A stretch of 64,000 bases of DNA from an uncultured Candidatus Rokubacteria bacterium (GTDB lineage Bacteria > Methylomirabilota > Methylomirabilia > Rokubacteriales > DASRDR01): positions 544,001 through 608,000 of the forward strand of contig CAVPSB010000018.1 of assembly GCA_963708025.1 (NCBI GenBank). Reading direction: 5' to 3'. A program made the translations under genes and the position numbers. Shown in pieces: positions 43,535 to 63,360 of the stretch (positions are counted from its first letter, which is position 1; every line of letters starts with the position of its first letter). The notes beneath the pieces are model-generated. The model was not told the origin of the DNA. It worked only from the letters and a program-made list of their open reading frames with translations, and did not search any database.

Positions 43535-43609
43535 GCAGTTCGCGTGCCCCCCGCGGGAGATCGCGATGGGGTCAAGCCCTAGGGGTGGCGGCGACCGCAA
43601 AGTTTGCAG
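43535..43609 (-). promoter_or_regulatory. Sigma54 promoter plus upstream palindrome
   Basis: GGGCACGCGAACTGC (43549-43535, minus); CCGCAAAGTTTGCAG at 43595-43609. Confidence 0.6.
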
Positions 43610-43679
43610 CCCGGTCGATTCGGTGGCGTCTCCGGAAAAGCCGCCAGAGTAAGCGCCGGAGTCATCGCCGAGTTTCAGC

Positions 43680-44262
43680 ATTGGTAGTGACGGCGCCCAG
43701 CGCCTAGCGGATGATCTGCTCCTCCACGGCGGGTGCCGAGGGTAATGGCAAGGCTCCCCTCGGGGCGCTCACCCGTGAGGATGGTTCGACGGCAGATGGA
43801 CGGGGCGGATGGCGCGCTCGCGCATCGGCCGACCACCCGCTCCGCCAGATTTCGGAGCTCGCGGACGTTGCCCGACCAGGCGTATTCCCCTAGGGCCTGG
43901 AAGCGCCACGAGCGACGAATAACTGCCGCCGCGTGCAGACCGAGCGCAGAACTCCCGAAGGAAGGCGCGGCGAGGAGCGCGATCGGCCCAACGGCGAGCC
44001 GGTAGCAGAGGTCCTCGCGGAAGGCGTCCGCCCGAACGGCGGCCTCCAGATTCTCGTTGGTCGCGGCGACCAAGCGGACGCCCACGGTGATTGGGCGGCT
44101 CCCGCGGCGGATCTCGCGCTCCTGCAACACGCGGAGAGAGTTGACCTGGATCATGGAACTCTTCCCCGACCTCGTCGAGGAAGAACGTTCCGCCGTTGAC
44201 CTGCTCGATCCGCCCGGCCTTCGTCGCCGGCGCTCCGCTGACACCGGCTCGCTGACGGCGGC
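43680..44262 (-). pseudogene. Decayed sigma54 activator fragment, paralog of 59616-61019
   Basis: [60 protein letters not shown]; several frameshifts. Confidence 0.85.
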
Positions 44263-44268
44263 TGACGC

Positions 44269-45423
44269 TCACCGGCGGGCCGGGGTCTGGGACCGGCGGA
44301 CCAGGCGGAGCGAGAGCGTCTGAGGGGCGACGCTCTCCAGCAGCACGCCCGGCGGGAGGTTCACCGCGGCGTCACGGATGTTGAGCGTGAGGAATCCCTC
44401 AGCCGCCCCGGCCAGATCGAACCGTGCGACCAGCGTCGTGAGGTTCGCGGACTCGAGGATCCACGCTCGCCCCCGGAGCTGGGTCTGAAGCGTCTGCGTG
44501 GAGAGGTACGAGACCTCCAGGTCTGCCGGGACGTTGCTGAGCTCGACCGGCACCGTGACCGACCGCACGGAGCCCCCCGTGAGGAGGACGGAACTCCCCC
44601 ACACCAGGGCTGCCAGTCCCACCGCCGTGGCCTTGAGGGTGAAGTCTCCGAGGAACACTTGCCGGAGCCGTCGCGTGCGGCCGATCGGACGGGGTTCGCG
44701 CTGCTGTCGGATCGCCTGCACCAGGGCGTCGGGAGTCTGGACGGCGACCATGTCCCCGCCGGATGCTAGGCTGACCTCGCCGCGCTCTTCCGACACGGCG
44801 ACGACCAGCGCGTCGGAGCGCTCGGCGAGCCCCATGGCCGCCCGATGGCGGGTCCCGTAGTGGCGAGGTACGTCGCGCCGCTGGGTGAGTGGCAGAAGCG
44901 CGCTCACCCGGGCGATGTGGTCGCCCTCGATGATGGTGGCGCCATCATGCACCGGCGACACCTTGCGGAAGATGGCTTCCAGGATCTCCGTCAAGATGGT
45001 CCCGCCGAGCGGGACGCCACCTTCCATGAGCTCGTCCAGGGGCTCGTCGCCCGCGATGACGATCAGAGCGCCGCGGCGCGCGTGCGCCAGGGAGAACGCG
45101 GCGGTCGCGATCGCGTGGAGCGACCGCTCGACGGTTGACGCACGGGGCGGGAGCAGCCAGGCCATCACGTCCAGCCGGACCAGGGCGCGCCGGAGCTCGG
45201 CCTGGAACACGATCAGGATCACGATCAGGGCCGCCAGCGTGGCGGCGTCGAGGACCCACACCGTCAGCGACAGCCCGAGCTGCCGCGCGACGACGGCGCC
45301 GACCCGGAGGCCCACGATCACGAGCGAGACCCGGAACGCGCGCGCCTCGCGGCCCCAGCGCAGCACGAGGTAGATGACGAGCGCGAGGACGAGCGAGTTG
45401 ACGAGGCCCCGCCAATGCATCAC
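44269..45423 (-). CDS. Membrane diadenylate cyclase (CdaA-type) fused to a YbbR/CdaR-like domain
   Basis: Three transmembrane segments, FQAELRRAL, GALIV, HDGA, GTRHRAA, VSEERG, then a fourth transmembrane segment and VPVELSNVP...LRG...LPPGV. Confidence 0.92.
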   Translation of the reverse strand: MMHWRGLVNSLVLALVIYLVLRWGREARAFRVSLVIVGLRVGAVVARQLGLSLTVWVLDAATLAALIVILIVFQAELRRALVRLDVMAWLLPPRASTVERSLHAIATAAFSLAHARRGALIVIAGDEPLDELMEGGVPLGGTILTEILEAIFRKVSPVHDGATIIEGDHIARVSALLPLTQRRDVPRHYGTRHRAAMGLAERSDALVVAVSEERGEVSLASGGDMVAVQTPDALVQAIRQQREPRPIGRTRRLRQVFLGDFTLKATAVGLAALVWGSSVLLTGGSVRSVTVPVELSNVPADLEVSYLSTQTLQTQLRGRAWILESANLTTLVARFDLAGAAEGFLTLNIRDAAVNLPPGVLLESVAPQTLSLRLVRRSQTPARR

Positions 45424-45669
45424 GACTCCGACCGGGTGCGGGTGAAGGCGGTGCGTGACCCCGAGACTCCGGTCTGGACCGAGCGTTGGTCAACGCGCCA
45501 CGTCGGGTGCCATCCGCGCTGGCCGGCGGCAAGCGACACGAACCGGAGCGCGAGGGGCGACACGCCCCAGCCTGCGCCCGCCCGTCCACCCTGCGCGTTC
45601 AGCAGGATACACGAGGGCCCGTATCCCCAGCCAGGCTCCCGATCGCGCGCCGCCAACCCGAGGTACTGG

Positions 45670-45765
45670 CTGCAAGACTTGCAGACCCTTCTGGGGTGCC
45701 ATGCGGCAGTCCGACCGCAAACCACTGAAACAGTATGGGATTCTGCGTATGGCAGCCGGCTTGCT
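45670..45765 (+). promoter_or_regulatory. Palindrome plus sigma54 promoter of the L,D-transpeptidase operon
   Basis: CTGCAAGACTTGCAG at 45670-84; TGGCAGCCGGCTTGCT at 45750-65. Confidence 0.75.
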
Positions 45766-45902
45766 GTCCTCCCAGCCACGAGCCTCTATCTGGGCGGGGC
45801 ACATGACGGTGATCGACTCACCGCTGGACCAGGGCGTCGAGGTCGGGGTCTCGGCGCACGCTTCCTGACCGCCGCGGTGGAACGAAGTGAGGAGGGAGAC
45901 AT

Positions 45903-46514
45903 ATGAGGGCGAGACGAGAACTGGCCGGTGCGGTGGTGCTCGGCGTTCTGGTGCTGGGCACGGGCTGCGCGAAGCCACCCGATGCGGAGGTGGCCGCGGC
46001 CAAGGCCGCGGTCGAGCAAGCGCGGAGTGCGGGAGCGCCCGAGTACGTGGCCGAAGCCTTCAAGGGCGCGGAGACCGGGCTCCAGAAGGCTCAGGAGGAG
46101 ATCAAGGCGCAGGACGACCGATTCGCTCTGACGCGGAACTACGACAAGGCCAAGGAGTCATTGGCGAGGGTCAAGGCGGACGCGGAGAAGGTCAGGACCG
46201 ACGCGGTGGCGGCCAAGGAGAAGGCCAAGGCGGCGGCCGAGGCGGCCCGGACGGACGCGCAGGCGGCGCTGGATGGGGCCAAGGCGCTCCTGGTGACAGC
46301 CCCCAAGGGCAAGGGCACCAAGGCGGACATCGAGGTCATGGGCGCCGATCTAAAGATCGCCGAAGCGGCCCTCGCGGACGCCCGGACCGCGCTCGACCGC
46401 GAGGACTACCTGGGCGCCAAGGCCAAGGCCGAGTCCGCCAAGGACAAGGCTGCCGCGGTGAGCGCGCAGGTGCAGCAGGCGAAGGCGAAGACGGCGACGG
46501 TGAAGAAGCGGTAG
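45903..46514 (+). CDS. Ala/Lys-rich helical lipoprotein (DUF4398-like)
   Basis: Lipobox GTGC, AKAAVEQARSAGAPEY, coiled coil; GAGGAGG RBS. Confidence 0.85.
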   Translation: MRARRELAGAVVLGVLVLGTGCAKPPDAEVAAAKAAVEQARSAGAPEYVAEAFKGAETGLQKAQEEIKAQDDRFALTRNYDKAKESLARVKADAEKVRTDAVAAKEKAKAAAEAARTDAQAALDGAKALLVTAPKGKGTKADIEVMGADLKIAEAALADARTALDREDYLGAKAKAESAKDKAAAVSAQVQQAKAKTATVKKR

Positions 46515-46517
46515 GGG

Positions 46518-47662
46518 ATGGCGGCCCGTCGGGGGTGGCCGGCCCTCTCGGGCCGGACGTCCGGCATGGTCGGTGCCGGGGTCGCGGTCGCCGCGGGCGC
46601 CACGCTCCTCGCATGCTGGACCTCGGCCCCGCTTCCATCCGATCTGCCGGCGGCGGCGGAGCGGATCGAGGAGGACGCCTCGCGGGCGGGCGCGGCCGAA
46701 CTGCTGCCCGAGCAGTATGCCGCGTATGGCCGCCGGCTGGTCGAGGCACGCCGCGTGTTTCGCCGGGAAGCCGACCGCTGGTGCGTGCTGCAGGGCCGGG
46801 CGCGCGTGGAGCAGGCATTCGCGGATCTGGAGCTAGACGGCCGGGCGCTTCTCCTGGCGGCCCGTGAGCGGAGCGCTGCGATTCGGCAGGAAGCGGTCAG
46901 GCACCTGGAGGCGACCGAGCGGCAGTTGGCCCGGTTTCGCGCCTGGCAGAGCGAGCTGGGGATGTACCTTCACCCGTCCCCCTTATCCACGGCCGATCTC
47001 GCGCTGCGCGAGGCGCGGCACTACCTGGACGCCGGGGTGTACGAGCGGGCGCGCGGACGCGTGGACGTCGCCGCCACATCCCTCCGGACGGTGGAGGGCC
47101 AGGCCCGAAGCCAGGTCCTCCGATACAGCGAAGGACCGGCGATGACGAGGTGGCGGCGATGGATTCGGGACGCGGTCGCGTTGTCGCGGGCGGGCCCGGT
47201 CCTCGTGATCGCGAAGGCCGAACGGCGCCTGTTCCTGTACCGGCACGGTCACGCCGTGGCGGACTCCCCGGTCGGGCTGGGCTTCAACGCCTTGGCCGAC
47301 AAGCTCTCCGAGGGTGACGGGGCGACCCCGGAAGGCCGGTTTCGGATCGTCGCCAAGAAGAGCGGGACGGAGACGCGCTACGATCGGGCCCTGGTCTTGG
47401 ATTATCCGACGGCGGACGATCGCCGGCGCCATGCGCAAGCCGTCCGCCGGGGGCTGCTGCCGCGGCAGGCCAGGATCGGCGGGCTGATCGAGATTCACGG
47501 CCGGGGGCCCGGGCCGGCCGACCGGACCAGCGGGTGTGTGTCGCTGGATCACGAGGCCCTGGTCACACCCTGTTCGACCTGGTCGACCGGGGCACCCCGG
47601 TGACGATTGTGGGGGCCACGTCGCCGCGAAATCCGGTTGCCCAGCAGACCCGGGCCGGGTGA
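46518..47662 (+). CDS. L,D-transpeptidase (YkuD) with helical N-terminus, frameshift near 47565
   Basis: VIAKAERRL, EGDGATPEGRF, LDYP, IEIHG...TSGCVSL; the shifted frame gives LFDLVDRGTPVTIVG. Confidence 0.88.
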
Positions 47663-47682
47663 CAGGAGGAGATGGCCGTCCG

Positions 47683-48334
47683 GTGAGGAGACGCGACGGA
47701 GGCCGGCACGAACGAAGGACCCTGACTCCACGACGCGCGGTCGCGTGGGCCGCGCTCGCTGCCGTCGCGGCCTGGGGCCTGACGGGATGGCTGGCCACGA
47801 CGCTGACCGCCTGGGAGCCACCCCCGGAAACCTCGCCGCAGGGGGCGCCCCCGGGGCCGGACGCGACGGCGCTGTCGCGCCTCGCGCCGCGAGGCCTCTA
47901 CGTGGTCGTGGATACGGCCCGTAAACCGCCTGAGCCTCAGGCGCCGTGACGAGACGCTGTACACGGCGGTCGCGTCCACCGGGAGCGGGGCGCGCCTGAT
48001 CGCCCCGCGCGATCCCAGCCGTGGCTGGCGATTCGACACCCCACGCGGGGTTTTTTCGATCACGAGCAAGCACGTCAATCCCGTCTGGATCAGGCCGGAT
48101 TGGGCGTTCCTCGAAGAAGGCCTCTCGGTCCCCTCCACGCCGGAGGAGCGTGCGGAGCCCGGCGTGCTGGGCCGGTATGCCCTGGGGTTCGGGAACGGCT
48201 ACTTCATCCACGGCACCCTCTACACCCGGCTGCTGGGCACCAACGTGACCCACGGGTGCATCCGACTCGGTGACGCGGATCTGGAGCATATCTTCAAGAC
48301 GGTTCCGCTGGGTGCGACCGTCTTCATCTACTAG
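47683..48334 (+). CDS. L,D-transpeptidase (YkuD), frameshift near 47924
   Basis: YVVVDTAR then, in the shifted frame, ASTGSG, FDTPRG, PVWIRPDW, YFIHGT...THGCIRL, GATVFIY-stop. Confidence 0.88.
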
Positions 48335-48389
48335 GCTGGCCGTCGGGTGCGTCCGATGGGTCCGCTCGCGCGAGGATTTCCGCACCGGG

Positions 48390-49067
48390 ATGTGCGCCAC
48401 CGCGTCGGCCATCCTCGTCGCGACGGCCCTGAGCGGGGCCTTCGCTGGGACCCAACCCCCTCCGGCGCCGGGCGCATCCCCCTGCGATGCGCTGGCTGGG
48501 CTGGAACTCAGCCTGGCCGGCCGCCCGAGCCTGTACGCAGTGGTGGACGGCCCCTCGCGGCGGATCGAGCTGAGGGCGAGAGGCGTCGTGCTTCGCCGGT
48601 TTCCGCTCAGGGAGCTGTCCTCGATCGGCCACGCGCGGGCGCCGACGGGCCCATGGGTCCTGGTCGCCAAGCTCCCGCTTATGGAGCCCGCCCCGACGAT
48701 GCCTCGGCCTCCGGGAGATACCACATCCGCTCAGAACGGAGCCGAGGACAGCCCGATGACCGTGGCGACCATGCCGGCGCGCTATCGGCTCGTGTTCCAG
48801 GGCGATCTCTGGATCCTGGTTCATCCAGGAGGGGCTGAGACTCGCTGGCAGCGGTTCTGGGACGGGCTGGGCGCCGTGACGGATCGAATCACCGCGTGGG
48901 CGAGGGTGCTCACGGGGCGGGTCGTCGGAGCCCGGCGACTGGTGCTCTTCGTCGAGCTGACTGGCGAGGAGGGGAGGGCCTTGTACTGGGCTGTCAGACC
49001 CCCGCTGCCTGTCCTGCTGCGGGTCGCGTGCCCGTCCGGCGAGCCGATCCCCGGCCCGGACCGCTGA
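48390..49067 (+). CDS. Exported hypothetical protein, YkuD-like without the catalytic His/Cys
   Basis: Signal-like start, LYAVVDGPSRRIELRARGVVLRRFP, ending ALYWAVRPPLPVLL. Confidence 0.6.
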   Translation: MCATASAILVATALSGAFAGTQPPPAPGASPCDALAGLELSLAGRPSLYAVVDGPSRRIELRARGVVLRRFPLRELSSIGHARAPTGPWVLVAKLPLMEPAPTMPRPPGDTTSAQNGAEDSPMTVATMPARYRLVFQGDLWILVHPGGAETRWQRFWDGLGAVTDRITAWARVLTGRVVGARRLVLFVELTGEEGRALYWAVRPPLPVLLRVACPSGEPIPGPDR

Positions 49068-49295
49068 CGCTTCAGGCGGCAGGCGCACAGAGCCTGCGAC
49101 AAGCGGGTGGACGAAGCGCGGCACGAGCAGAGCGACCTCAGCGGATGATCGTGTACGCAAAGCCAAGCGGCCTGGTGCGCAGCCGCGGAAAGGCCCTCGT
49201 CAAGGCCGAAAGCGTCGGCAGCGCCTTGGGCGAGAATGGGTCGCGGCCGGCCCAGAAGCGTCTTCCTCCTTCCACGGCACTCTCACGTCACCATC

Positions 49296-51085: not shown

Positions 51086-51448
51086 TCAGCGCGGGCCTGC
51101 CCTGCGCGACTCGGCGCGTCGCTGTTCGGCACGGATCTCTTCGAGCAGGGCTCGCGCACTCGCGAGGCGCCCGCTGAAAATCTGACGCGCAACGTCCAGG
51201 AGCTGAAACAGCCGCGCGTCTCGGACGCGATAGCGCACGATGCTCCCATGTTTCATGGTTTCGACGATCCCCTGGCTCCGCAGCACCGCCAGTTGCTGTG
51301 ACACGACGGACTGATCGAGACTCAGATCATGCTGGAGCTTGCTGACGCTCGCGTCCTCGGTGCGGAGCCTCTCGAGGATGGCAATTCGTGTCGGATGAGC
51401 AAGGGCCTTGAAGAAGTCCGCCATGAACGGCCGAAGGGCCTGAGCCAT
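51086..51448 (-). CDS. ArsR/SmtB family regulator
   Basis: FFKALAHPTRIAIL, VSQQLAVLR, GSIVRY. Confidence 0.9.
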   Translation of the reverse strand: MAQALRPFMADFFKALAHPTRIAILERLRTEDASVSKLQHDLSLDQSVVSQQLAVLRSQGIVETMKHGSIVRYRVRDARLFQLLDVARQIFSGRLASARALLEEIRAEQRRAESRRAGPR

Positions 51449-51984
51449 ATGTAGATCTCCGCGGTTTACGCTCAGCGGTCCACCGCGGGGGGGCCGTCGC
51501 TGCAAGGAAGCATCCCTCTCGTATGGGGAGGCCCCGTGAAGGAAGGCCGAGCCATGAGGGCGGGGTCCTTTACCGTGGCACCACGAAAAGCGTCGCGGTC
51601 ATGGTCGGCGCGTGCGTCGAAGACCGGGCTCGAGGGCTGATGATCCGGTGACCGAGGAGCTTTGATTTCGTGGTCCTCGTCGGCGCGATGTAACTCCTGC
51701 TCCGGTGGGGGTCGTGACGATCGAGCCTTCCGCGTCGCATTCGCGATCCTCGGGCTTGTCGCCGGGGCGGTCTTCGCGCGGCCGCGTGAGCGGCTGATCA
51801 CGAGCCAGGGTCTTCGCGCTGGCGAGCCTCCCGGCTCTCGTCGCGGTGCTGGTCCGTGTTCCAGGGCGAACTCCGTCACGCCCTGGCGCGGCTCGATGTC
51901 GTCCGCCGCCGCCCGGGCGCGACCGAATGGCTTGTGCAAGTGATCCGCACGGCGGCGTTCTTCTGAGACGATGAGCCCGGACCG

Positions 51985-52725
51985 CTACGGGGCGCTCCAC
52001 ACGACCCGCCCCGATTCGTCCAGAAAGGCCAGCCCCGGCCCGGCGTCGGCGACCACACCGAGCTCGACCCTGGTGCGGCCCTGCGGGTCGTAGAAGCCCA
52101 GCGTCGCGACGCCATCCGCCGAGACGCCCAGACCGAGGCGGGGTGTCTCGTCCTTCTGGGCGAACGCCAGGTAGGCCGAGCCATCGGGCCGCACGGCGAG
52201 CTCGACCCGCGTTTTGCCGCTGGGGTCCGTGAGCGCCAGGCTGAGCGCGCCGTTGGCACCGACGAGGAGGACAACGCGGGGTTTGCCACGCTGGTCGGCG
52301 AACGCGAGGGTCGGCGAGCCATCGGCGCGCAGGCTCAGCTCCACGTGGGTCCGACCGTCGGTGTCCGCCAATCCGAGCGTCGGCGTCCCATCGCGTCGCA
52401 GCGCCAATTCCGCCCGCGTCTTCCCGTCCTTGTCGACGAGGCCGAGGCTCGGGGTCCCGTCCTCGCGCATGCCGAGCGCGGCACGCACCTTGCCGGCTTC
52501 ATCGAGAATCCCGAGGGCGGGCGTGCCATCCGCCCGTACGGCCAGAGCGGCGCGCCGCCTGCCCGACGCGTCCACGAGCACGAAGCTTTCGGCCGAGATG
52601 ACTCTGGCCGTGGGATTCGGCGCCGTTGGGCCCGCGAGCAACATGGCACCGAGCACGATGGCTGCGCCAACGGCGAGGCGTCCTCGTCTCCTCCACCCCG
52701 CTGTGAGCATCCCGTTCTCAGCCAT
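51985..52725 (-). CDS. Membrane-anchored or exported 23-aa beta-repeat protein
   Basis: Hydrophobic N-terminus, then about 8 repeats like SLGLVDKDGKTRAELALRRDGTP. Confidence 0.8.
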   Translation of the reverse strand: MAENGMLTAGWRRRGRLAVGAAIVLGAMLLAGPTAPNPTARVISAESFVLVDASGRRRAALAVRADGTPALGILDEAGKVRAALGMREDGTPSLGLVDKDGKTRAELALRRDGTPTLGLADTDGRTHVELSLRADGSPTLAFADQRGKPRVVLLVGANGALSLALTDPSGKTRVELAVRPDGSAYLAFAQKDETPRLGLGVSADGVATLGFYDPQGRTRVELGVVADAGPGLAFLDESGRVVWSAP

Positions 52726-52800
52726 CCGCCGACCATCCCTTGTTCCGCGCGCACGACACTCGACAGCAGCCCGCGCAATCACCTCGCCCGCCATGCGGGA

Positions 52801-54598
52801 TCATGGCTCGTCAAGGAGCGGGCGCAAGTCCGCCGGGATCTCCGGCAGTGGCGCTTGTGTCGCTGTCAGCCGCTGCTCGGCTCGCCGCGCAAGGATGTTG
52901 ACCTTGGAGAAGTGACCGTCAGGCCTTGGATAATCGGCCCGCGTATGGCCGCCGCGACTCTCGCGTCGTTCCAGGGCCGCGAGGGTCACGGCCTCCGACA
53001 CCGTCAGGAGCGCGTGGAGGTCCAACGCGAGATGCCACCCGGGGTTGTAGCAGGCGCTTCCGACCACCGCCACCTGCTTGGCACGGTCCTTCAATCGGTC
53101 CAGTCGTTGCAAGGCCTCCTTCAGCTCGGCTTCTGTGCGGACGATGCCGACCAGTTCCTGCATCAGCGCCTGAAGGTCCTGCTGGATCGCGTACGGATTC
53201 TCCCCGGTCTTGCGCTCAAAGGGGGTTCGGAGCTCATGGACGACGGCGTCGATGAGCCCATCGTCCAGGCTGGCGTGACCACGCCACGCTGCGGCATACT
53301 GCGCCGCCGCGACTCCGGCGCGGCGGCCGAAGACCAGGAGATCCGACAGGGAGTTGCCGCCGAGGCGGTTGGCCCCATGTAACCCACCGGCGATCTCACC
53401 CGCGGCGAACAGGCCGGGCACCCCAGTGGCCGTGGTGTCGGCGTCCACCCGCACCCCGCCGTTCATGTAGTGGGCCGTGGGCCCGACCTCCATGGGGTCC
53501 CGGGTGATGTTGACGCCGGCGAGCTCCATGAACTGGTGATACATGGAGGGCAGCCGTCGCCGAATGTACTCGGCGGGACGCCGCGACGCGATGTCGAGGT
53601 ACACGCCGCCGTGCGGGCTCCCGCGTCCGCCCTTGACCTCGGCGTTGATCGCGCGCCACCTCGTCGCGGGGGAGCAGGTCCGGCGTGCGCCGGGCGCTCT
53701 TCTTGTCCGTATACCAGCGGTCGGCCTCCGCCTCCGTCTCAGCCGTTTCGGTGCGGAAGTACTCGGGAATGTACCCGAACATGAACCGCTCGCCCTTGCT
53801 GTTCTTCAGCGTGCCGCCGTCGCCGCGCACACCCTCGGTCACCAGGATGCCGCGGACGCTGGGTGGCCACACCATGCCGGTTGGGTGGAACCGATAGCAC
53901 TCCATGTTGATGAGGTCAGCCCCGGCCTCGAGCGCCAGCGTCACGCCGTCCCCCGTGCACTCCCAGGAGTTGGAGCTGAATTGCCAGGCTTTGCCGATTC
54001 CACCGGTGGCCAGGATCACGGCCTTGGCGTGGAAGATCACGAACCGGCCGGTCGGCCGATGGTATCCGAAGGCGCCGGCGATGCGGCCGTCATCCGTGAG
54101 CAGCCGCGCGATGGTGTACTCTATGAAGACATCGATGCCACGGTGCACCACGTGCTGCTGCAGCGTGCGGATCATCTCGAGCCCGGTCCGATCCCCGACA
54201 TGCACCAAGCGCGCGTAGCGGTGGCCGCCGAAGTCGCGCTGCAGGATCCGTCCGTCTTTGGTGCGGTCGAAGAGCGCCCCCCAGCGCTCGAGTTCCAGCA
54301 CGCGGTCCGGCGACTCTTGGGCGTGCAGCTGCGCCATTCGCCAGTTGTTGAGCAGCTTGCCGCCGCGCATCGTATCCCGGAAGTGAACCTGCCAGTTGTC
54401 CTCGGGATACACGTTTCCCAGCGCGGCCGCAATCCCGCCCTCGGCCATCACCGTATGGGCCTTCCCGAGGAGCGACTTGCAGACGAGAGCAGTCCGGGCG
54501 CCCGCGGCGGCCGCTTCGATCGCGGCCCGGAGCCCGGCGCCGCCCGCGCCCAAGACGAGGACGTCATAGGCGTGGTGCTCGCACTCGGCTCGACTCAT
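52801..54598 (-). CDS. sdhA: Succinate dehydrogenase/fumarate reductase flavoprotein, frameshift near 53652
   Basis: GAGGAG, AHTVMAEGG, FHPT, TEGVRGDGG, LLPRDEVAR, HYMNGG, HGANRLGGNSL, RESRGGH. Confidence 0.88.
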
Positions 54599-54937
54599 GC
54601 GATGAGCGCGCCTCTGCCCGATCGACGCATGCGCGGCGTCTTCCTCACACGGGGAGCATGGCCCTCCGCCAGTCCCACGTGACAGCCGGGACTGTCGCTC
54701 GAAGACGACGGCGTCGAGCGCGACGGCCCACCCGGTGACGCACGTGGCGAGCCAGGAATGGATACTGTCCGCCGCGGCCGTCCAGGCCGCCCAAGGCCAG
54801 GAGCGTCCGGCCGGTGTCGAATGTGACGTCATCGGTCTGATACCTGCGCATCGCGGCCTGCCTCTCAAGAAAGGGTACATTCCCGTTGCTGGCCCGCGAG
54901 TCCTCTGGACCCGACCCCCCGGGCGTCGGCGTGTCTA

Positions 54938-55256: not shown

Positions 55257-55385
55257 CTACCGCTCCGCGGCTTGCGCCGGCTGTGGCGGCGCGGGGGCCG
55301 GGGCGGGAGGCGGGGGTACGGGCTGCGCGCCGCCACCCGGCTGAGGTTCCCGCGGCGGCTTGGACCGGATCTTCTTTCCTCCCAT
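55257..55385 (-). CDS. 42-aa basic, Pro-rich peptide (not in the ORF track)
   Basis: MGGKKIRSKPPREPQPGGGAQPVPPPPAPAPAPPQPAQAAER; GGAGGTG RBS; first ORF below a sigma54 promoter. Confidence 0.6.
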   Translation of the reverse strand: MGGKKIRSKPPREPQPGGGAQPVPPPPAPAPAPPQPAQAAER

Positions 55386-55435: not shown

Positions 55436-55531
55436 AGCAAGGGCTCTGCCACGCCCGAAAACGCCAGGGAGCGTTGATGCTTGCACTCCCACCTGGTGGG
55501 CGGCCGCGACGGCCGACCGCAACTCTTGCAG
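55436..55531 (-). promoter_or_regulatory. Sigma54 promoter plus palindrome
   Basis: TGGCAGAGCCCTTGCT (55451-55436, minus); CCGCAACTCTTGCAG at 55517-31. Confidence 0.78.
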
Positions 55532-55682: not shown

Positions 55683-55779
55683 CTGCAGGATTTGCGGTCG
55701 CGGGTGGGGGCTTGGACGCCGCGCGTGTCAAATCGGCGACGCAGCATGCGCACATAGCGGGTTTGGTACGCCCGGTGCT
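55683..55779 (+). promoter_or_regulatory. Palindrome plus sigma54 promoter
   Basis: CTGCAGGATTTGCGG at 55683-97; TGGTACGCCCGGTGCT at 55764-79. Confidence 0.65.
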
Positions 55780-55845
55780 TCTGTCATCGCGTGCCGTGGT
55801 GTGGGACGTGGACGATTCCCTGCGGACAGAGAGGAGAGTGGCAGC

Positions 55846-56241
55846 ATGAAGACCGTTGGCGTGTTGGTAGTGGCGTTGGCGGTGGGCTTGACCAGCGCAG
55901 CGTGGTCGCAGTCGGCTCAGGGACCCGCCAAGACGGACCCGGCCAAGGCGGCGCCCTCGGCATCGCCCCCCAGCGAGGTCAAGAAGGCGCCCGAGAAGCT
56001 GACGATGGTGAGCGGCAAGGTGAAATCGGTCGGGCCGAACGCGCTGGTCGTCCAGGTGGCGGGCAAGACGCCGAAGGAACTGACGTTTGACCTGACGGGC
56101 ACGGCCATCAAGGCTGGCGGCAAGGACGCCGCGTCCACCGACCTGAAGGACGGCGACGAGGTCCGGGTCGGGTACATGGAAGCGGACGGAAAGCTGGTCG
56201 CCAAGACCGTGAGCGCGAAGGCCGCGAAGGTGAAGAAGTAG
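55846..56241 (+). CDS. Secreted small beta-barrel (OB-fold/DUF5666-like) protein
   Basis: Signal peptide, SGKVKSV, DLKDGDEVRVGY, VAKTV; GAGGAG RBS. Confidence 0.8.
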   Translation: MKTVGVLVVALAVGLTSAAWSQSAQGPAKTDPAKAAPSASPPSEVKKAPEKLTMVSGKVKSVGPNALVVQVAGKTPKELTFDLTGTAIKAGGKDAASTDLKDGDEVRVGYMEADGKLVAKTVSAKAAKVKK

Positions 56242-56580
56242 CCCGCAGCACTCGCCGCAGCCCGACTCCTGGCCCCGGGGGCCTCGCCGGGCGTCAGGGT
56301 TCGGGCCGCGGCGTCGCGGCGACATGAAGTATCCGCCTCGCCAGGAGTTGACTGGCGGGGCCAAGGCCGGCGCCGACATGGATGTGAGCGTCATCGGCCG
56401 GGCGCACGCGCTGGTCGGGTTCGGGCCCCGTCAGCGGGCAGCGGCTCGCCGGCGCTTGTCGGGCCCAAGATGCCCTCGTCGTGTGGTGGGTCGCGCCGAA
56501 CACGGGACGGCGTCCGTGCCGGGAGGTCGGCCGGCGTCGCCGTTCAGTACGCGCTAATCCGGCGCAGGGAGGACGCGTGG

Positions 56581-57819
56581 GTGGCTCCTAAGGAACGGCG
56601 TCCCCGGGTTGTCGGCGTCACGGGCTGCGCGCCGCTGGCCGCGGTGACGACGGAGCACGGGTCCGAGGCCGAGCAGCTGGCTCAGCATTTGCGATTCCTG
56701 GCCGACCATCTCGGGGCCCGGCCGGTCGGCAGTGCGGAAGCGTCGCGGGCCGCCCGCTACCTTCGTGACGCGATCGTGAGTCTCGGCTTCACCCCGGAGG
56801 TCCAGGCATTCTCCGTGACCCTTCGCCTCGGTCGCCAGGCTCGGTTGCGGAGGGCGGACGGCCGCTCCCTCCCCTGTCAGGCGGCGCTCGGTTCGTTCGG
56901 CACGCGAGCGGTTCTGCGAGGCGTGCCGCGGCTCGTGACCGAGAGCGAGCGGCGGGCGTGGCCGGCCGCCGTGGCCCCCGCGAACACCTTCGCCGTCTGC
57001 CCGATCGATCGCGACGGGGAGGCCGCGGCCGTGACCGGCGCGGTGCAGGGAGGGGCGAGCGCGGTCCTCCTCTACCGGGAGCGGACACCGGAGCTCTACT
57101 CGGCCGCCATTCCGGACGGTGGGCTCCCGGTTCCGTGCGTCACGATTCGGCCGGCCGATGGGCTGCACCTGGTCGCCGAAGGGCGAGACGTCGAGCTGAG
57201 CGTCGAGACAGAGCGACGGACCGCCCTCGGTGAAAACCTGATCGTCCAATTCGGACAGGGGGGACGCCCGCTGTTGTTCCTCGCCAACTACGACTCGCGG
57301 CCCGGTACGCCCGGCGCGTATCAGAACGGCTCGGGCGTGGTGGCCTTGGTGGGCCTGCTCACGCGACTCCGGGGCTGGCAGGGCCACGAAGTGCTGGTGG
57401 GATTCCTTGGTGGAGACGACCCCACCGCCGCAGGCTCGCGACACTGTCGCGACGTGGTGCAGGCGACGCACGTGCCGCCGAGCCTGCGAGGCATCGTCTA
57501 CGTGTCGGCCGTCGGGACGAACAGCCTGGCAGCGGTGCCCGGTGACTCGGCGAAGTCTCCCCGGTTGGCGGAGGTCGCGCGACGAGCAGTCACGGCGGAC
57601 GGTTTGACTGTGGGAGATCCTGGAGTGCTCGCGGCCAACGCGGCGGCGGCCGCTCGGCTCTGGGGGTGTCCCGTGGTGACGCTGACCGGTCCCCGCTTGC
57701 CCCTCGAACACACCGGGCTCGACCGACCGGATCTCGTGAGTCCTCGCGGCTTGGCGCGGGTAGTGTCCGTGCTCGAACGCCTCGCTCGGATCCCGGACGG
57801 TGCCGGTTCGGCGACCTAG
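56581..57819 (+). CDS. M28 peptidase-like protein with PA domain and degenerate metal site
   Basis: GARPVGS, ENLIV, ANYDS, PGAYQNGSG, EHTGLD. Confidence 0.75.
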   Translation: MAPKERRPRVVGVTGCAPLAAVTTEHGSEAEQLAQHLRFLADHLGARPVGSAEASRAARYLRDAIVSLGFTPEVQAFSVTLRLGRQARLRRADGRSLPCQAALGSFGTRAVLRGVPRLVTESERRAWPAAVAPANTFAVCPIDRDGEAAAVTGAVQGGASAVLLYRERTPELYSAAIPDGGLPVPCVTIRPADGLHLVAEGRDVELSVETERRTALGENLIVQFGQGGRPLLFLANYDSRPGTPGAYQNGSGVVALVGLLTRLRGWQGHEVLVGFLGGDDPTAAGSRHCRDVVQATHVPPSLRGIVYVSAVGTNSLAAVPGDSAKSPRLAEVARRAVTADGLTVGDPGVLAANAAAAARLWGCPVVTLTGPRLPLEHTGLDRPDLVSPRGLARVVSVLERLARIPDGAGSAT

Positions 57820-58242
57820 CGCGAGCGGCAGGGGGGAGGCGGGCTGACGCGAAGCCCGTTGTCGCGCGACGTTGGACAGCTCCCGATGTCCGGGGGGGAG
57901 CAGTAGGGCGGGTCCCCCGGATCGACGGCTGGACGCCGGCGCCGTGTGGCGATCTCCTCTCTCTGTGGCTGCTCGTGGTCGGCTCCTGGCCGCTCGGCTG
58001 ACCTGGGAGGCCGCGGTGTCGCACGCGCATCGACCGTCTTGGGCCGTATTAGACCAGGCGTGGCGTCCGGAGCCGCGTGGCCACGTGGCGCGGAGCCGCC
58101 AGCGGGGACGCGTCGCCGTGGCCCAGCCACGTTTCCGCGTGACTGCCAGAGTGCTAGAGTGCGGAGGATGACGAAGTGCCGTTCCCGAACGCCGTCTCGG
58201 ATCGATGGGCCGCGGGGCGGTGGCCGGAGGCTGGTCTAGCCC

Positions 58243-59616
58243 ATGCTCCGTCCGGCGCCGGCCCGCTCACTTCTGGGATACGTCCCGCTCCGCTTGGCCG
58301 CGTCGGTCTTTCTCCTCTTCGCCTTGCTTCTCGCGGCCGCCGTCGGGGTCGGCATCCAGTTCGAACGGCACTCCCTCGTGAGTTCCGGCGCCATTGCGTC
58401 GCCCGGGGATCTCCGCGCTGGCCTCACGTGGAACGATGCGCTGAAGATCGTGACGATTCTCCTGACGCTCGCCGCTGCCGCCATCGTGCTGTTCACCACG
58501 TTTCAGAACTACCGATCGGCCACCCAGACGTTTGAGCGCGTCAAGGCCCTCATGCGGAACGTGTTGGAAAGCATCCCGACCGGCGTGTTGACGCTGGACT
58601 CCGACGGGGTGGTCACCTCGCTCAACACCGCCGCCGAACGCCTGCTCGGGGTTCGGGCCTCGATGGTCGTCGGCCGCCCGTTGGAAGACGCGCTCCAGCG
58701 AGCGGCCGAACTCGCCGCCTGGGTGCGCGCGGCACTGTGCGGCCAGGGACTCGTCCAGGAGAGCGACCTGTCCGTGTCGGGCGCCGAGAGTCGCCGGCTG
58801 ATTGTGCGCGTGTCGGCTGCTGAACTCCGTGACGAATCGAGTCGGTCCGACGGACTGGTCGTCCTCCTCCGCGACGTTACCGAGGTCAGCCGGCTCGAGC
58901 TTCAGCTCCGGCGAGCGGACAAGCTCGCCGCGCTCGGCACGCTAGCCGCCGGGGTGGCCCATGAGGTGAAGAACCCACTGCACGCCCTGAGCCTGAATCT
59001 GCACCTGCTGGTCCAAGAGCTCGGGGCGCCCCAGCCGGCCAAGGGGGAGCTCGAGGATTATCTCGGGATTCTTCGGTCGGAGATCGAGCGCATTCACCAG
59101 ATCGTGGAGAACTTCCTCCGCTTTTCGAAGCCCTCGATTCCGGAAGTGAAGCCGCTCGATCTCAACGCGCTTGCCGAGCGGGTGCTCAGTCTCGTCGCGT
59201 TCGAAGCGGCGGGGCACCGGGTCGGGATCCAGACCGAGTTTGACCCCGAGCTCGACCCGATCGCTGGCGACGAAGGCCAGCTCGCCCAGGTCGTCCTCAA
59301 TCTCGTGATCAACGCCCTGCAGGCCATGCCGGCCGGCGGGAATCTGGCGCTCGCGACGCGGCGCGACAATGGCTGGGCGGCGCTCACGGTGAGGGATACT
59401 GGCGAGGGCATCCCGCACGAGGTCATTCCGCAGATTTTCGACCCGTACTTCACCACCCGGCCGGGCGGGTCCGGGCTCGGGTTGGCGATTGCCCACCGGA
59501 TCATCGAAGGCCACCACGGCACCATTGACGTCGACAGCAAGGCGGGCCTGGGGACGACCATGGTCGTCCGCCTCCCGCTGGCCGGTGGGCCCATGCCGGC
59601 CGCGAGGAGCGCCTGA
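58243..59616 (+). CDS. PAS sensor histidine kinase
   Basis: Two transmembrane segments, PAS (LNTAAERLLG), AHEVKNPL, NLVINA, DTGEGI, FDPYFTT, GSGLGL. Confidence 0.96.
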   Translation: MLRPAPARSLLGYVPLRLAASVFLLFALLLAAAVGVGIQFERHSLVSSGAIASPGDLRAGLTWNDALKIVTILLTLAAAAIVLFTTFQNYRSATQTFERVKALMRNVLESIPTGVLTLDSDGVVTSLNTAAERLLGVRASMVVGRPLEDALQRAAELAAWVRAALCGQGLVQESDLSVSGAESRRLIVRVSAAELRDESSRSDGLVVLLRDVTEVSRLELQLRRADKLAALGTLAAGVAHEVKNPLHALSLNLHLLVQELGAPQPAKGELEDYLGILRSEIERIHQIVENFLRFSKPSIPEVKPLDLNALAERVLSLVAFEAAGHRVGIQTEFDPELDPIAGDEGQLAQVVLNLVINALQAMPAGGNLALATRRDNGWAALTVRDTGEGIPHEVIPQIFDPYFTTRPGGSGLGLAIAHRIIEGHHGTIDVDSKAGLGTTMVVRLPLAGGPMPAARSA

Positions 59617-61019
59617 TGCGAGGCAACGTCCTGGTCGTCGACGATGAGCTGAACATTCGGACCGCGCTGGGGAAGATACTCGAGAAAGCCGGTCACGCGG
59701 TCGTGGTGGCGGAGAGCGGAGACCAGGCACTGAGCCGGCTCCACGAGACGTCGTGTGACGTCGTTCTCACGGATCTCAAGATGGTGGGCGCTGGCGGCCT
59801 GGACGTCCTGCGTGCTGTCAAGCAGCGACAGCCGGAGGCCGAAGTGATTCTGTTGACGGCGTTCGGCACGATCGACAGCGCCGTCGAAGCGATGAAGATC
59901 GGGGCGTACGACTACCTGACCAAGCCGACCGACCCCGAACGGCTCGTCCACGTGGTGGCGAAGGCGCTCGAGCACAAGGCGCTGCGTGAGGAAGTCCGTC
60001 AGTTGCGCGAGCGCATCGCGGAGCGCGAGGCGTTCGAACACATCGTGGGACGAAGTCTCCGGATGCGCGAGGTCTACGAGCGGGTCCGCCAGGTCGCCTC
60101 GACGACCGCGACCGTGCTCATCAGCGGCGAGTCCGGGACCGGCAAGGAGCTGGTGGCCCGGGCCATTCACAACCGCAGTGCCCGGAAAAGCGGACCGTTC
60201 GTGACGTTGAACTGCGGGGCGCTGCCGGAGACCCTCCTCGAGTCCGAGCTCTTCGGCCATGAGCGCGGCGCGTTCACCGGCGCGCTGGCGACGAAGGCCG
60301 GGCGGATCGAGCAGGCCGACGGCGGCACGCTGTTCCTGGACGAAGTGGGCGAGATGAGCGCCAAGACCCAGGTGGACTTTCTTCGGGTCCTCCAGGAACG
60401 GGAGTTCCGTCGAGTCGGGGGGACGCATCCGCTCACGGTGGATGTTCGGTTCATCGCGGCGACCAACAAAGAGCTGGAGGCGGCCGTCAAGGGGGGGGCA
60501 TTCCGCGAGGACCTGTATTATCGGCTCGCCGTGGTGCCGATCACCCTGCCGCCGCTCCGCGAACGAACGGAAGACCTCCCCGTGCTGGCGACCGCGTTTC
60601 TCCGGGAGTTCTGCACCCGGTACGATCGCGCGGAGAAGTCCTTCTCGGCGCCGACGTTCCAGGCGCTCCGCGAGTATGCGTGGCCCGGCAACGTCCGCGA
60701 GCTCCGGAATCTCGTCGAGCGGCTCGTCGTCACGGTCCCCGATCGGGTGGTCCGTCCCCTCCACCTCCCCTCCACGATCCTGACGGGCGAACGCCCGGAG
60801 CACAGTGTCACGATCCCGTTGGGCATGCCCCTCCACGTCGTCGAGGAACAGGTGATCCGCCGAACCCTCGGCGCGATCACCGCGAACCGGGAGCGGGCCG
60901 CCAAGGTCCTCGGCATCAGCCCGCGCGCTCTGCACTACAAGCTGCGGCGGTATGGGATCGAGAAGTTGCCGCGCGAGCGATCCGAGGAGGAAGAGTCGCC
61001 CCAGCGGCCCCAGCCGTAG
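59616..61019 (+). CDS. Sigma54-dependent response regulator (NtrC/AtoC family)
   Basis: Receiver, [38 protein letters not shown], Fis-type HTH. Confidence 0.98.
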
Positions 61020-61092
61020 GGCCTGGGTTCCAGACTGAGGCGAACGTCCCCGTTTCTCCGCGTGCCTCGGCCCAGCGGGCCCCTCCGGCACA

Positions 61093-61220
61093 CTGCAACT
61101 CTTGCGGTTCGACCGCCACCTCCGCCGGGTGGGTCGCCCGTTCGGCGCGCCTCCCGACGGACTAAGCCGCTGTCTCGCTGAGGGTTTCTGGCCCCTCGTC
61201 CTCGCAGGCACGCGAATTGC
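61093..61220 (+). promoter_or_regulatory. Palindrome plus sigma54 promoter
   Basis: CTGCAACTCTTGCGG at 61093-107; AGGCACGCGAATTGC at 61206-220. Confidence 0.75.
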
Positions 61221-61239
61221 CGTGCAGACGAACGAGGCC

Positions 61240-61894
61240 ATGATGGCGTTGCGGTTGTCCATCCTCAGGGCACGCCCAGGACGGGAAGCGGCCGTGCTCG
61301 ATCGCCTGCGCCACGCGGTGTCACGCCCGGGACACGGCGAGGCGACGTCGCTCCTTCTCTGCGCGACGGACGATCCCGGAGAGTTCGTGTGGATGGGGGA
61401 CCTCGCAGCGGCGGCGCGGCTCGGCCCCGCATCGATCGACGTCATCGATGCAGTGGCGACCGATCTCCTTGGGCCGGTGTCGGTGTTCTCCCTGCGGTTC
61501 GTCGGTGGGTGGCACCGCTTTCCGGCGCCCCCCTACCAGATCTGGAACGTCGAGGTCTGGGCACCGGTCGACCTGCCTGGTCAACAGCGTGACCGAGCTG
61601 TTCGTGCCGGCGGGCGCCAGCCGAGCTGAGCCCGTGATCGGCCGCTCCGTGTTCCGCGCCATCGATGAGGCGACGCTCTTCATCGGATTCGTCGGCCTGA
61701 CATCGAACTGGCTTCGACAACACCCGATGCCTCGGCACGCCAGCGCACGCGGCGCCATCGCCGTTTGGCGACCGCTGTCCGTGATGTACCGGGCAGAGAC
61801 GCTCCGAGGCGGCGTGGAGAGGCGGCCCCTCGGTTCTCTCTGGTCTGGTGTCGTCCCAGCGCCGGTGGGTGCCGCCGTGGTCGTTTCGTCGTGA
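61240..61894 (+). CDS. Hypothetical protein, possibly tandem ABM-like domains, frameshift near 61575
   Basis: LRARPGREAAV...DDPGEFVW; a second frame has FRAIDEATLF. Confidence 0.45.
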
Positions 61895-61929
61895 CGGACC
61901 AGCCGTCGCCAGGTGCTCGATCACGCCAC

Positions 61930-62172
61930 ATGGGCGGCGAACGCAACGGGGTCAATGGTCACCACAGGGGGATAGGGGTGGACACACTCATTGTGGTCGT
62001 CACGTGTGAGCGCTGCGGGCAAAGCTGGCACCAACGGTCCGTCTCGCCCGAGCAGGTCCTGGAGTGCATTTTTTGCGGCTGTCGAGGACACCTCAGCCTC
62101 GGGCCCGCCCAGGCCGATCCGAACGGGACCCAGCATGCGGAAGGGTGGCTTCATGGTCCGCGCGCATCCTAG
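61930..62172 (+). CDS. Small zinc-ribbon protein
   Basis: CERC...CIFC. Confidence 0.55.
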   Translation: MGGERNGVNGHHRGIGVDTLIVVVTCERCGQSWHQRSVSPEQVLECIFCGCRGHLSLGPAQADPNGTQHAEGWLHGPRAS

Positions 62173-62192
62173 CGAATCACCCCGGAGGTCAT

Positions 62193-62672
62193 GTGGGATT
62201 CTTTTTCGGTGCTGACGCGGAGCGGGCCCTGGGCGAGGATCTGACCCCCACGGTCACGGCGGGCGAGTATCTCGAGGCGATGACCAACGTAATCCAGGAA
62301 CTGACCGAGGCCCCTCGAGGTCGACGTCACACGTGCCGCCTCGGATTTCGCGCCCTCGCGGCGGGCCTGGCCGGGCGGGCCACCCTCGTGTTCTCGGCTC
62401 ACGTGCGCCGGCACCCGAGCGACGAGCACGCCTACCGGCTGCTGGGCCTCGCGCATCTGACCTGGGGGAACGATCGGCTGGCAGTCAAGCATCTCGAGAT
62501 CGCGCTCGGTCTTCTGCGCCGGAGGGCCGTCCACGCCATGAGCCTGCGTGACAGGCTGCGTCTCCACTGCGAGGCGGCACTGCTGCGGCTCGTGCTCGTC
62601 TCGCTACACTCCCGGCTCGGCGAGGTCCAGGCCGCGCGCTGGCTCGTCCGCGAAGGAGAGGAGTTCCTGTGA
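62193..62672 (+). CDS. TPR-like helical hypothetical protein
   Basis: HPSDEHAYRLLGLAHLTWGNDRLAVKHLEIAL; supported by a decayed paralog at 43 kb. Confidence 0.65.
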   Translation: MGFFFGADAERALGEDLTPTVTAGEYLEAMTNVIQELTEAPRGRRHTCRLGFRALAAGLAGRATLVFSAHVRRHPSDEHAYRLLGLAHLTWGNDRLAVKHLEIALGLLRRRAVHAMSLRDRLRLHCEAALLRLVLVSLHSRLGEVQAARWLVREGEEFL

Positions 62673-62703
62673 ACCGTCACGCACGGAGAGGAGGGTCGCC
62701 GCC

Positions 62704-63360
62704 GTGGACCGAAGGAGACAGCTGATTTCCAGCGTTGCGCTGCTGGGGACGGCCCTCCTGCTTGCGGGGTGCCCCAAGACGCCGAGCCCGACGCCGGCTG
62801 GCAGTGCCGCCGTGGCCGGCTCGGCCCAGAGCGCAGGCGTGACCGCCATCGTGCCCAGCGGAGGCGCCCCGGCCGGGCCGCGGACTGCGACGGCGACGGC
62901 ACCGGGTGCGGTGACCGGCGGCGCCGGCGGCCCCGGAGCGCCCGGAGCCTCCGCATCCCAGGGAGGGCTCACCGCGGCGGGCACCTCGTTACCGGCTCTG
63001 CCCGCGCCCCGGGAGTACGTCGAGAACCCAGCTCTGTCCGCGATCCACTTCGACTTCGACCGGTACGACCTTCGTCCACAGGAGAAGGAGCGGCTGGCGA
63101 AGAACGCAGACTGGATCAAAGCGCACACCGGGGTGCTGCTCCTGATCGAATGGCACGCCGACGAGCGAGGCACGAACGAGTACAATCTCGCGCTCGGCGA
63201 ACGCCGGGCGAAGGCCGCCCGCGACTACCTCGCTAGTCTCGGAATCGACGGCAGCCGGGTCACCCTCATCAGCTACGGCGAGGAGCGGCCCCTGTGCACC
63301 GAGCGCGCCGAGAGCTGCTGGGCCAGGAACCGGCGCGCGTACTTCCTGGTGAAGCCGTAA
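62704..63360 (+). CDS. pal: Pal-like OmpA-family peptidoglycan-associated lipoprotein
   Basis: Lipobox LAGC, IHFDFD, HADERGTNEYNLALGERRA, SYGEERP, NRR. Confidence 0.88.
   Translation: MDRRRQLISSVALLGTALLLAGCPKTPSPTPAGSAAVAGSAQSAGVTAIVPSGGAPAGPRTATATAPGAVTGGAGGPGAPGASASQGGLTAAGTSLPALPAPREYVENPALSAIHFDFDRYDLRPQEKERLAKNADWIKAHTGVLLLIEWHADERGTNEYNLALGERRAKAARDYLASLGIDGSRVTLISYGEERPLCTERAESCWARNRRAYFLVKP

Follow-up and report, generated by a model that had tools for sequence, protein, structure and literature searches.

The 64,000-nt window analyzed here (G000:C18:544001-608000, that is, positions 544,001 to 608,000 of contig CAVPSB010000018.1 in the 8.17-Mb, 49-contig assembly G000 of an uncultured Candidatus Rokubacteria bacterium) contains a 20-kb block that very probably, judging from its sequence, makes up a local, autoregulated sigma54 two-component regulon, conserved among relatives, in which an intergenic palindrome would be the cognate enhancer of a bacterial enhancer-binding protein (bEBP) encoded in the same block. 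bEBPs oligomerize at upstream sites, loop to the sigma54 holoenzyme and open the promoter. An earlier note on this DNA had proposed such a self-contained regulon, with the palindrome CYGCAR-N3-TTGCRG as enhancer and the product of 59616-61019 as activator; genome-wide ranking of the sites, their conservation and an association between recognition helix and motif support this proposal. The five 15-mers that match the palindrome lie exactly where they had been placed, all in intergenic DNA, and the window holds no further exact match:

43595..43609: enhancer palindrome 1, within a decayed duplicate module; paralogue of site 5
45670..45684: enhancer palindrome 2
55517..55531: enhancer palindrome 3
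55683..55697: enhancer palindrome 4; the 19-mer and its promoter are identical in G138
61093..61107: enhancer palindrome 5, directly 3′ of the activator gene, a placement kept in 13/13 close homologues

Four copies of the strict form CYGCAA-N3-TTGCRG exist in the genome, all of them inside this same block, and the same half-sites separated by any other spacer from 0 to 12 give 0 or 1 genome match per spacer. With a matrix trained on 30 sites taken only from other families, the five highest scores in the entire 8.17-Mb genome fall on the window sites (20.2-26.2 bits; next best 19.7). The loose symmetric form, which allows R and Y at the inner positions, was not enriched genome-wide, since its 24 matches compare with 22 for spacer 12. 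None of the matrix matches of at least 13 bits elsewhere in the genome had a convincing promoter that would indicate further members of the regulon.

Each site in the window is accompanied by one clear sigma54 promoter, at a distance d (from the palindrome centre to the promoter GG) of 105, 74, 74, 75 and 107 bp and with scores of 12.2-15.3 bits:

43483..43499, minus strand: sigma54 −24/−12 element of site 1 (d = 105, 12.2 bits)
45749..45765, plus strand: sigma54 element of site 2 (d = 74, 14.4 bits)
55436..55452, minus strand: sigma54 element of site 3 (d = 74, 15.3 bits)
55763..55779, plus strand: sigma54 element of site 4 (d = 75, 13.5 bits), heading the run that ends in the kinase and activator genes
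61205..61221, plus strand: sigma54 element of site 5 (d = 107, 12.8 bits)

Four of the five GG-N10-GC elements originally paired with the palindromes coincide with these best-scoring promoters, but the one assigned to 43595 with a 45-nt gap had to be replaced. That candidate (43534-43550, d = 54) scores only 6.1 bits versus 12.2 bits at d = 105, and we preferred the latter, which stands 34 nt before the start of a remnant of a gene for an ABM-fold (dimeric alpha/beta barrel) protein, mirroring the 36 nt that separate the promoter of site 61093 from the intact ABM-fold gene. Across homologous loci, the distances of 46 hand-listed site-promoter pairs, from which the near-identical G145 and G043 pairs were excluded, group at 63, 71-75, 82-85, 91-95 and 103-110 bp, with one at 131 bp, giving a resultant of 0.70 at a period of 10.5. 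When each of the 21 distinct distances is counted once, p is ~0.01 at period 10.5 and ~0.004 at period 11. These clusters uphold the helically phased spacing that the earlier note had read from the window, and steps of ~10.5-11 bp would fit a looping activator that has to meet the holoenzyme on the same helical face. One palindrome per promoter is the rule in this system. Promoters at d = 73-75 (window 55745-55762; L019, L020, L021, L026, L094, L282) often carry a YGRCGCRGRGATAG-like conserved element directly upstream of the −24 box, which may be plain homology or the site of a second factor.

The presence of a GAFTGA activator and a PAS kinase within the block was confirmed:

58243..59616, plus strand: sensor kinase with two hydrophobic segments around a loop of ~25-35 amino acids, PAS, HisKA (His240) and HATPase domains
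59616..61019, plus strand: bEBP response regulator with receiver (Asp53), GAFTGA-containing AAA+ domain and helix-turn-helix (HTH) of Fis type with the recognition helix SPRALHYK

The H box and ATPase of the kinase are intact, and its gene adjoins that of the activator. The genome contains a single copy of rpoN and ~30 bEBP-like genes (40 matches including fragments); among the bEBP C-termini listed for it, no other one has the SPRALHYK helix, which in the form S(P/A)RALHYK is invariant in 13/13 aligned homologues. More generally, helix and site go together at the loci examined: a palindrome lies at most 600 bp past the stop codon of 21/25 bEBPs with an RxLxYK helix, compared to 1/57 with other helices and 0/21 in which the helix could not be parsed. 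Seven of the 25 RxLxYK loci had been found through the motif; when they are excluded the count is 14/18, and the four bEBPs without a site all belong to a distant tier of homologues. The SxRALHYK proteins form a group of 17 rows in a quick tree (SH-like approximate likelihood-ratio support, SH-aLRT, of 95), including the metagenomic L297 and G535, the latter belonging to the phylum of an Acidobacteriaceae genome. In both of these TGCA-N5-TGCA follows the activator gene directly, in G082 and G102 it precedes the upstream promoter, and in G064 and G118 it was not found on the contigs examined.

The association extends beyond this family. A scan of GTDB for the site with a promoter returned at least 120 stretches, most of them probably chance or other systems, among which at least eight distinct bEBPs outside the family (Clostridia, Pelotomaculum, Desulfacinum) adjoin the site, and 8/8 of these have an RxLxYK helix. 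As targets they have TRAP transporters, a glutamate symporter or an acetate-CoA ligase, so that this type of palindrome is not tied to envelope genes. A clostridial two-component family with the helix SERNL(Q/R)YK (L209, L212, L213, L223, L225, L173) has the same site, often doubled, upstream of TRAP/glutamate transporters; no such group is evident in the Clostridiales regulon table of PMC6615313. Methylophilaceae records L169, L170, L175, L183, L185, L194, L202 and L239 also contain the palindrome with a sigma54 promoter, which in two of them (L170 and L175) is located upstream of an AMP-binding/oxidoreductase-like operon. Binding and activation by the 59616-61019 protein are thus predicted from the sites, the promoters, their spacing and the helix association, and we consider it highly likely that C-YGCAR-N3-YTGCR-G is its upstream activating sequence.

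To follow the system in relatives, we compared the last 102 residues of the activator with 251 genomes of the phylum. Thirteen genomes, including G000, encode a homologue with at least 74% identity, four have one at 57-61% and the remainder reach at most 52%; a search with the kinase (151 genomes) returned the same set. The homologous loci, which were chosen by protein similarity and not by motif and span 2.9-53 kb each across the 13 close ones, contain 43 palindromes, 35 of which have a sigma54 promoter scoring at least 10 within 30-200 bp (30/38 when the window's own sites are excluded), whereas random positions reach this score in 0.7% of cases per direction (1500 positions). Two of the 35 probably borrow the promoter of a neighbour. 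Although the DNA that separates a site from its promoter has diverged, the palindromic form of the sites and their phase are kept. The palindrome and its promoter recur beside close homologues of the activator and kinase. The strict motif occurs 38 times in the 13 genomes that encode a close activator and 158 times in the other 238 (2.9 versus 0.66 per genome), a difference on whose p-value we put no weight because kin genomes are not independent. Outside the phylum, close homologues of the activator were found in 1/351 genomes of the phylum of G251 and in 0/301 of the phylum of G252, where the query had no positive control. When metagenomes were scanned with the kinase alignment, most of the matches listed were unrelated kinases, and 4/80 of the listed loci were useful. 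At L022:5664, L023:5356, L024:5329, L025:5348 and L371:10703, a palindrome is kept 3′ of the activator gene without a good sigma54 promoter, several of them between convergent genes; these could be relics, downstream enhancers or autoregulatory sites.

By analogy with other bEBPs, the adjacent membrane kinase would phosphorylate the receiver Asp of the activator, which would oligomerize at the palindrome and loop over 6-11 helical turns to the sigma54 holoenzyme. It would open four intact promoters, those of the lipoprotein-YkuD operon, of the leftward operon, of its own operon (positive feedback) and of the ABM-zinc ribbon-TPR-Pal operon, the fifth site sitting on a decayed duplicate. The most weakly inferred steps are the two ends of the pathway: the signal might be a membrane or envelope disturbance read by the kinase through its short outer loop, a feature that recalls intramembrane-sensing kinases, and the output might be a broad envelope/membrane-stress response with L,D-transpeptidases as an optional module. 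The signal is deduced from the target genes and the short loop of the kinase only.

Site 43595 does not count as an independent fifth target, because it is part of a collapsed inverted copy (43170-44259) of the activator-site-promoter-ABM-TPR arrangement, whose activator part shows 68% DNA identity along with deletions. The activator pseudogene had not been mentioned in the earlier note. Two remnants flank the site:

43170..43463, minus strand: fused remnant with the start and middle of the ABM-fold gene (weak pieces, E 0.007-0.4) and the end of the TPR-like gene (E 1e-6)
43759..44259, minus strand: activator pseudogene copy, 68% DNA identity, with internal deletions and neither receiver nor HTH

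The remaining genes of the block are as follows:

44269..45423, minus strand: diadenylate cyclase with DAC domain (YbbR-like tail in G138), divergent from site 2
45903..46514, plus strand: helical lipoprotein, DUF4398-like (under the cut-off)
46518..47662, plus strand: YkuD L,D-transpeptidase-like protein 1 with catalytic His/Cys motif; frame shifts near 47550
47672..48334, plus strand: YkuD L,D-transpeptidase-like protein 2 with catalytic His/Cys motif; N-terminal part frameshifted, start approximate
48345..49067, plus strand: fourth gene of the lipoprotein-YkuD cluster, conserved, no YkuD Pfam match
51086..51505, minus strand: ArsR-family gene, homologues of which head Hyf-type operons at two related loci
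51985..52794, minus strand: repeat protein of a family without a name; start approximate
52801..54601, minus strand: sdhA-like flavoprotein, split near 53650; a lone subunit with a second copy on contig C12
54938..55171, minus strand: 77-amino-acid open reading frame (ORF), with weak homologues in 3/182 other genomes of the order
55257..55385, minus strand: Pro-rich 42-amino-acid ORF that opens the run behind the site-3 promoter; good ribosome-binding site
55846..56241, plus strand: small secreted protein, DUF5666-like (E 5e-4, under the cut-off)
56611..57819, plus strand: M28/PA-domain peptidase-like protein with degenerate zinc-ligand motifs; start approximate
61243..61894, plus strand: two-domain ABM-fold protein, one extra base near 61579
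61930..62172, plus strand: small zinc-ribbon protein with two CxxC
62190..62672, plus strand: TPR-like protein (weak TPR matches in homologues)
62704..63360, plus strand: Pal/OmpA-family lipoprotein paralogue with a long Ala/Gly/Pro linker; start approximate

Site 2 is predicted to head an operon of the lipoprotein gene, the two YkuD genes and the fourth gene. The cluster had been described as a lipoprotein plus three YkuD-type proteins; the DUF4398-like lipoprotein and two YkuD proteins stand, but the third is a cluster-mate without a Pfam match. The diadenylate cyclase, overlooked earlier, has no sigma54 promoter on its side of site 2 and was for this reason taken as a neighbour and not as a target. 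The N-terminal helical part of YkuD1 in G064 is distantly like the window's DUF4398-like lipoprotein (20%, E 7e-8; window counterpart 46518-47000), hinting at a duplicated helical spacer. The predicted run of site 3 comprises the 42-amino-acid Pro-rich ORF, the 77-amino-acid ORF, the sdhA-like gene and the repeat-protein gene, and perhaps also the ArsR gene and a CNNM gene. The sdhA-like assignment within this leftward run was correct, but sdhA was not found at the other 12 close loci, nor was the Pro-rich peptide, and in G237 two paralogues of the repeat-protein gene come directly behind the matching promoter. Site 4 would drive the DUF5666-like, M28-like, kinase and activator genes; in G138 the kinase gene comes immediately after the identical site and promoter, from which we infer autoregulation. 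Site 5 is predicted to head the operon of the ABM-fold, zinc-ribbon, TPR-like and Pal paralogue genes.

The M28-like, sdhA-like and OmpA/Pal family labels were confirmed, and the putative secreted beta-barrel protein reduces to the weak DUF5666 match. Compared with the canonical M28 residues, the zinc ligands and the catalytic Glu pair are not preserved: the first His is often Asn, the Asp motif is replaced and the Glu pair is variable. The AlphaFold model of the ABM-fold protein has a predicted local distance difference test score (pLDDT) of 72, and its top Foldseek matches are double-ferredoxin monooxygenase-like proteins. The extra base near 61579 is missing from contigs of three other sequencing runs. 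The residue of the Pal paralogue at window position 63151 is Trp, against Gly in G138 and in contigs from three other runs; no such change was seen in the closest of these runs, and the difference may be an error or a strain variant. Housekeeping genes in the window also appear split, mnmA and parB among them, which indicates that the assembly has indel errors; real deletions were seen only in the activator pseudogene, and only 61579 was checked against other runs. Intrinsic terminators were uninformative as operon ends (7 found, 5.5 expected).

At the 13 close loci, the most frequent genes are those for the TPR-like (12), ABM-fold (11), zinc-ribbon (11), Pal/OmpA (8), M28-like (7) and GNAT (4) proteins; rarer are DUF5666, cyclase, ArsR and HyfB (3 each), YkuD (1) and sdhA (1). 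The DUF4398-like lipoprotein is present at 3/13, two of which had been missed by a count filtered for low complexity, and Pal/OmpA occurs at three more distant loci as well. The conserved core consists of the ABM-fold, zinc-ribbon, TPR-like, Pal paralogue and degenerate M28 proteins, with the L,D-transpeptidases as accessories. YkuD1, found at 1/13 close loci, is not part of it. The lipoprotein-YkuD cluster adjoins members of the activator clade that belong to three distinct lineages, represented by the window, G064 and G535. Away from the activator locus, sites with promoters in G095 and G033 precede runs encoding DegP, VTT/DedA, an RpoD-like sigma factor, TauE and a Pup ligase, the DegP and VTT/DedA genes being those of G095. 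Related loci also contain a Na+/H+ exchanger, a cold-shock domain protein and DUF1059, and at L297 a site-bearing promoter stands in front of a Hyf-type membrane complex. ArsR and Hyf-type membrane-complex genes lie beside the system at L023, L024 and L297, a layout that we take to resemble the mycobacterial Rv0081-Rv0087 operon.

To the left of the block lie a second repeat-protein paralogue (40795-41427) and a DUF1059 gene (42483-42647), a family also found near site-bearing promoters in G013 and G033. The 3′ part of a tRNA-Arg(TCT) with its flank (41936-42017) is 90% like an intact gene on contig C48, and glpX (35701-36811) is 98% like the same contig, which suggests an old integration or duplication. 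An Rfam scan of 28000-64000 returned the tRNA fragment only, and the G+C content is lower from ~28 kb of the window onward. Farther left, 6803-28268 holds housekeeping genes, named by eye from their translations: ATP synthase genes, mnmA, parA/parB, yidC, rpmH, dnaA, dnaN, recF, gyrB, gyrA and serS.

Several observations weigh against the proposed enhancer or against an envelope output. The weights of the sigma54 matrix are approximate; 8/43 palindromes lack a promoter, including those 3′ of the activator between convergent genes; related genomes are not independent; the significance of the phasing is modest on distinct distances; and three distant-tier homologues keep the helix without a site 3′ of the gene, two of their contigs being without a promoter too. 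IHF-type bending sites, which are common but not obligatory between enhancer and promoter in NtrC-family regulons, were not enriched between palindrome and promoter (6/46 within two mismatches of the E. coli consensus versus 5.3 in shuffles). As for the output, the TPR-like, ABM-fold, zinc-ribbon and M28-like proteins look cytoplasmic and have no known envelope role, and three other genomes have a YkuD cluster without activator or site, two of them beside a different two-component pair.

The palindrome could in principle be bound by another factor, ~30 bEBP-like genes being present in the genome, or be the relic of a mobile, partly decayed island that lies beyond a tRNA-Arg 3′ fragment and includes a pseudogene duplicate, and the promoterless sites would fit such a history. 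We find this highly improbable, as the sites remain palindromic and phased while the intervening DNA diverges, the helix-motif association spans phyla and no high-scoring palindrome exists elsewhere in the genome. With the activator as reader, the question becomes what the promoters serve. The grounds for an envelope/membrane-stress response are the recurrence of Pal/OmpA (8/13) and of the lipoprotein (3/13), the YkuD cluster in three lineages and the DegP and VTT/DedA genes of G095; on these we favor that output with moderate confidence, and the explanation as a whole, cognate enhancer and envelope/membrane-stress output together, carries the same restrained preference. The same enhancer and activator might instead govern energy, pH or ion homeostasis in a response of the stationary-phase type, a reading that we take as possible but doubtful. 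In its favor are the Hyf-type complex, which a site-bearing promoter precedes at L297 and which at G091, G043 and G145 is encoded farther along the leftward run (its promoter has good scores in the first two, but 5.7 in G145), the Na+/H+ exchanger, TauE, RpoD-like sigma factor, Pup ligase, cold-shock domain and DUF1059 at related loci, and the cytoplasmic PAS domain of the kinase. Against it, these genes vary between genomes whereas Pal and lipoproteins recur across tiers, and the PAS alignment has no invariant His or Cys ligand.

The earlier note had proposed a peptidoglycan/outer-membrane remodelling programme, a narrower reading that we take as a dedicated programme centered on L,D-transpeptidases and Pal. 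The ties of the lipoprotein-YkuD cluster to the activator clade, the catalytic His/Cys of both YkuD domains, the frequency of Pal and the diadenylate cyclase adjoining in three genomes of the family speak for it, and the recurrence of Pal stands. However, YkuD1 occurs in 5/251 genomes of the phylum and in one of the 13 with a close activator (many of the assemblies being fragmented), the YkuD genes of the window carry frameshifts that may reflect decay or sequence error, the usual metal ligands are missing from the M28 protein, no sigma54 promoter faces the cyclase, and the core targets are mostly cytoplasmic and belong to families without a known function, all of which makes the programme in this form quite unlikely. 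The broader stress response thus remains our preferred output. A bolder version of it, which we judge unlikely, is an undescribed envelope-surveillance circuit of uncultured soil bacteria in which a kinase with almost no outer domain would sense membrane or peptidoglycan-tethering stress, possibly via the co-encoded long-linker Pal or a small secreted protein, and use single phased enhancers to drive L,D-transpeptidases together with cytoplasmic enzyme look-alikes (ABM-fold, degenerate M28, zinc ribbon, TPR) as a new stress pathway.

Among known systems, AtoS/AtoC of E. coli is the best NCBIfam match of both the kinase and the activator, although neither reaches the equivalog cut-off (475 versus 714; 319 versus 646). 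The order atoS-atoC-enhancer-sigma54 promoter-atoD (NC_000913; atoDAEB) is the same as here, and the recognition helices are SRRALMYK in AtoC and SPRALHYK here. AtoC binds two tandem 14-bp sites, TGCAG-N4-TTGCR (PMC3118216), whose half-sites are near-identical to those of the window but have a spacer of 4 instead of 3; at ~94 and ~113 bp, their distances to the GG come close to the phase seen here, and there are two per promoter instead of one. No ato genes occur at the present locus, the kinase is ~150 amino acids shorter than AtoS, and AtoC falls outside the SxRALHYK group on weak branches (quick tree without the clostridial rows and with some redundant rows dropped).

The palindrome is not new in the sense first proposed, since it differs by one outer base from the site of the Desulfovibrio bEBP DVU1063 and by one spacer base from that of AtoC; it is best regarded as a one-base variant of known enhancers. 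DVU1063 controls a flagellar regulon through 13-bp GGCAA-N3-TTGCC sites, many of them downstream of the promoter (PMC4641369). Compared by site alone, its inner bases and spacer are as here and its outer base is G versus C/T; its flagellar targets are unlike those of the window. Other TGCA-Nx-TGCA sites, predicted or mapped for sigma54 activators, have x = 3, 4 or 6 (PMC4641369, PMC6615313): DVU1419 (x = 6, envelope stress), DVU3305 (x = 3, general stress) and DVU2827 with clostridial XanR/CdsR (x = 4). They share the core half-site class, some with stress regulons, and differ in target genes; the C/G-flanked form with x = 5 was absent from the rows examined in the supplements of these two papers, figure logos being outside the comparison. 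The enterobacterial QseE/QseF(GlrR)-QseG system, which is tied to envelope homeostasis and co-encodes a lipoprotein (PMC6075780), is likewise a sigma54 two-component system with a lipoprotein alongside, but the present activator scores 366 against a GlrR cut-off of 763 and no small RNA or RpoE target of the QseEGF type was seen at the locus. A term search of the main text of PMC12316311 found mention of neither this lineage nor transpeptidases, and we found no published description of the present system in a literature search that stopped short of subscription papers, figure logos and bioRxiv supplements.

That sigma54 can control envelope genes is itself a known theme (PMC3162934), and with a textbook architecture the finding will be more useful than surprising to a specialist. 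Beyond that architecture, already known, what is new is the variant site and a largely uncharacterized set of targets. The block provides an activator-site-promoter set, directly testable in E. coli or in vitro, for a lineage without a cultured model, and ties the ABM-fold, zinc-ribbon, TPR-like and degenerate M28 families to one signal. It also adds to the bEBP recognition code an entry that pairs the RxLxYK helix with TGCA-N5-TGCA in at least four phyla and is usable for regulon prediction.

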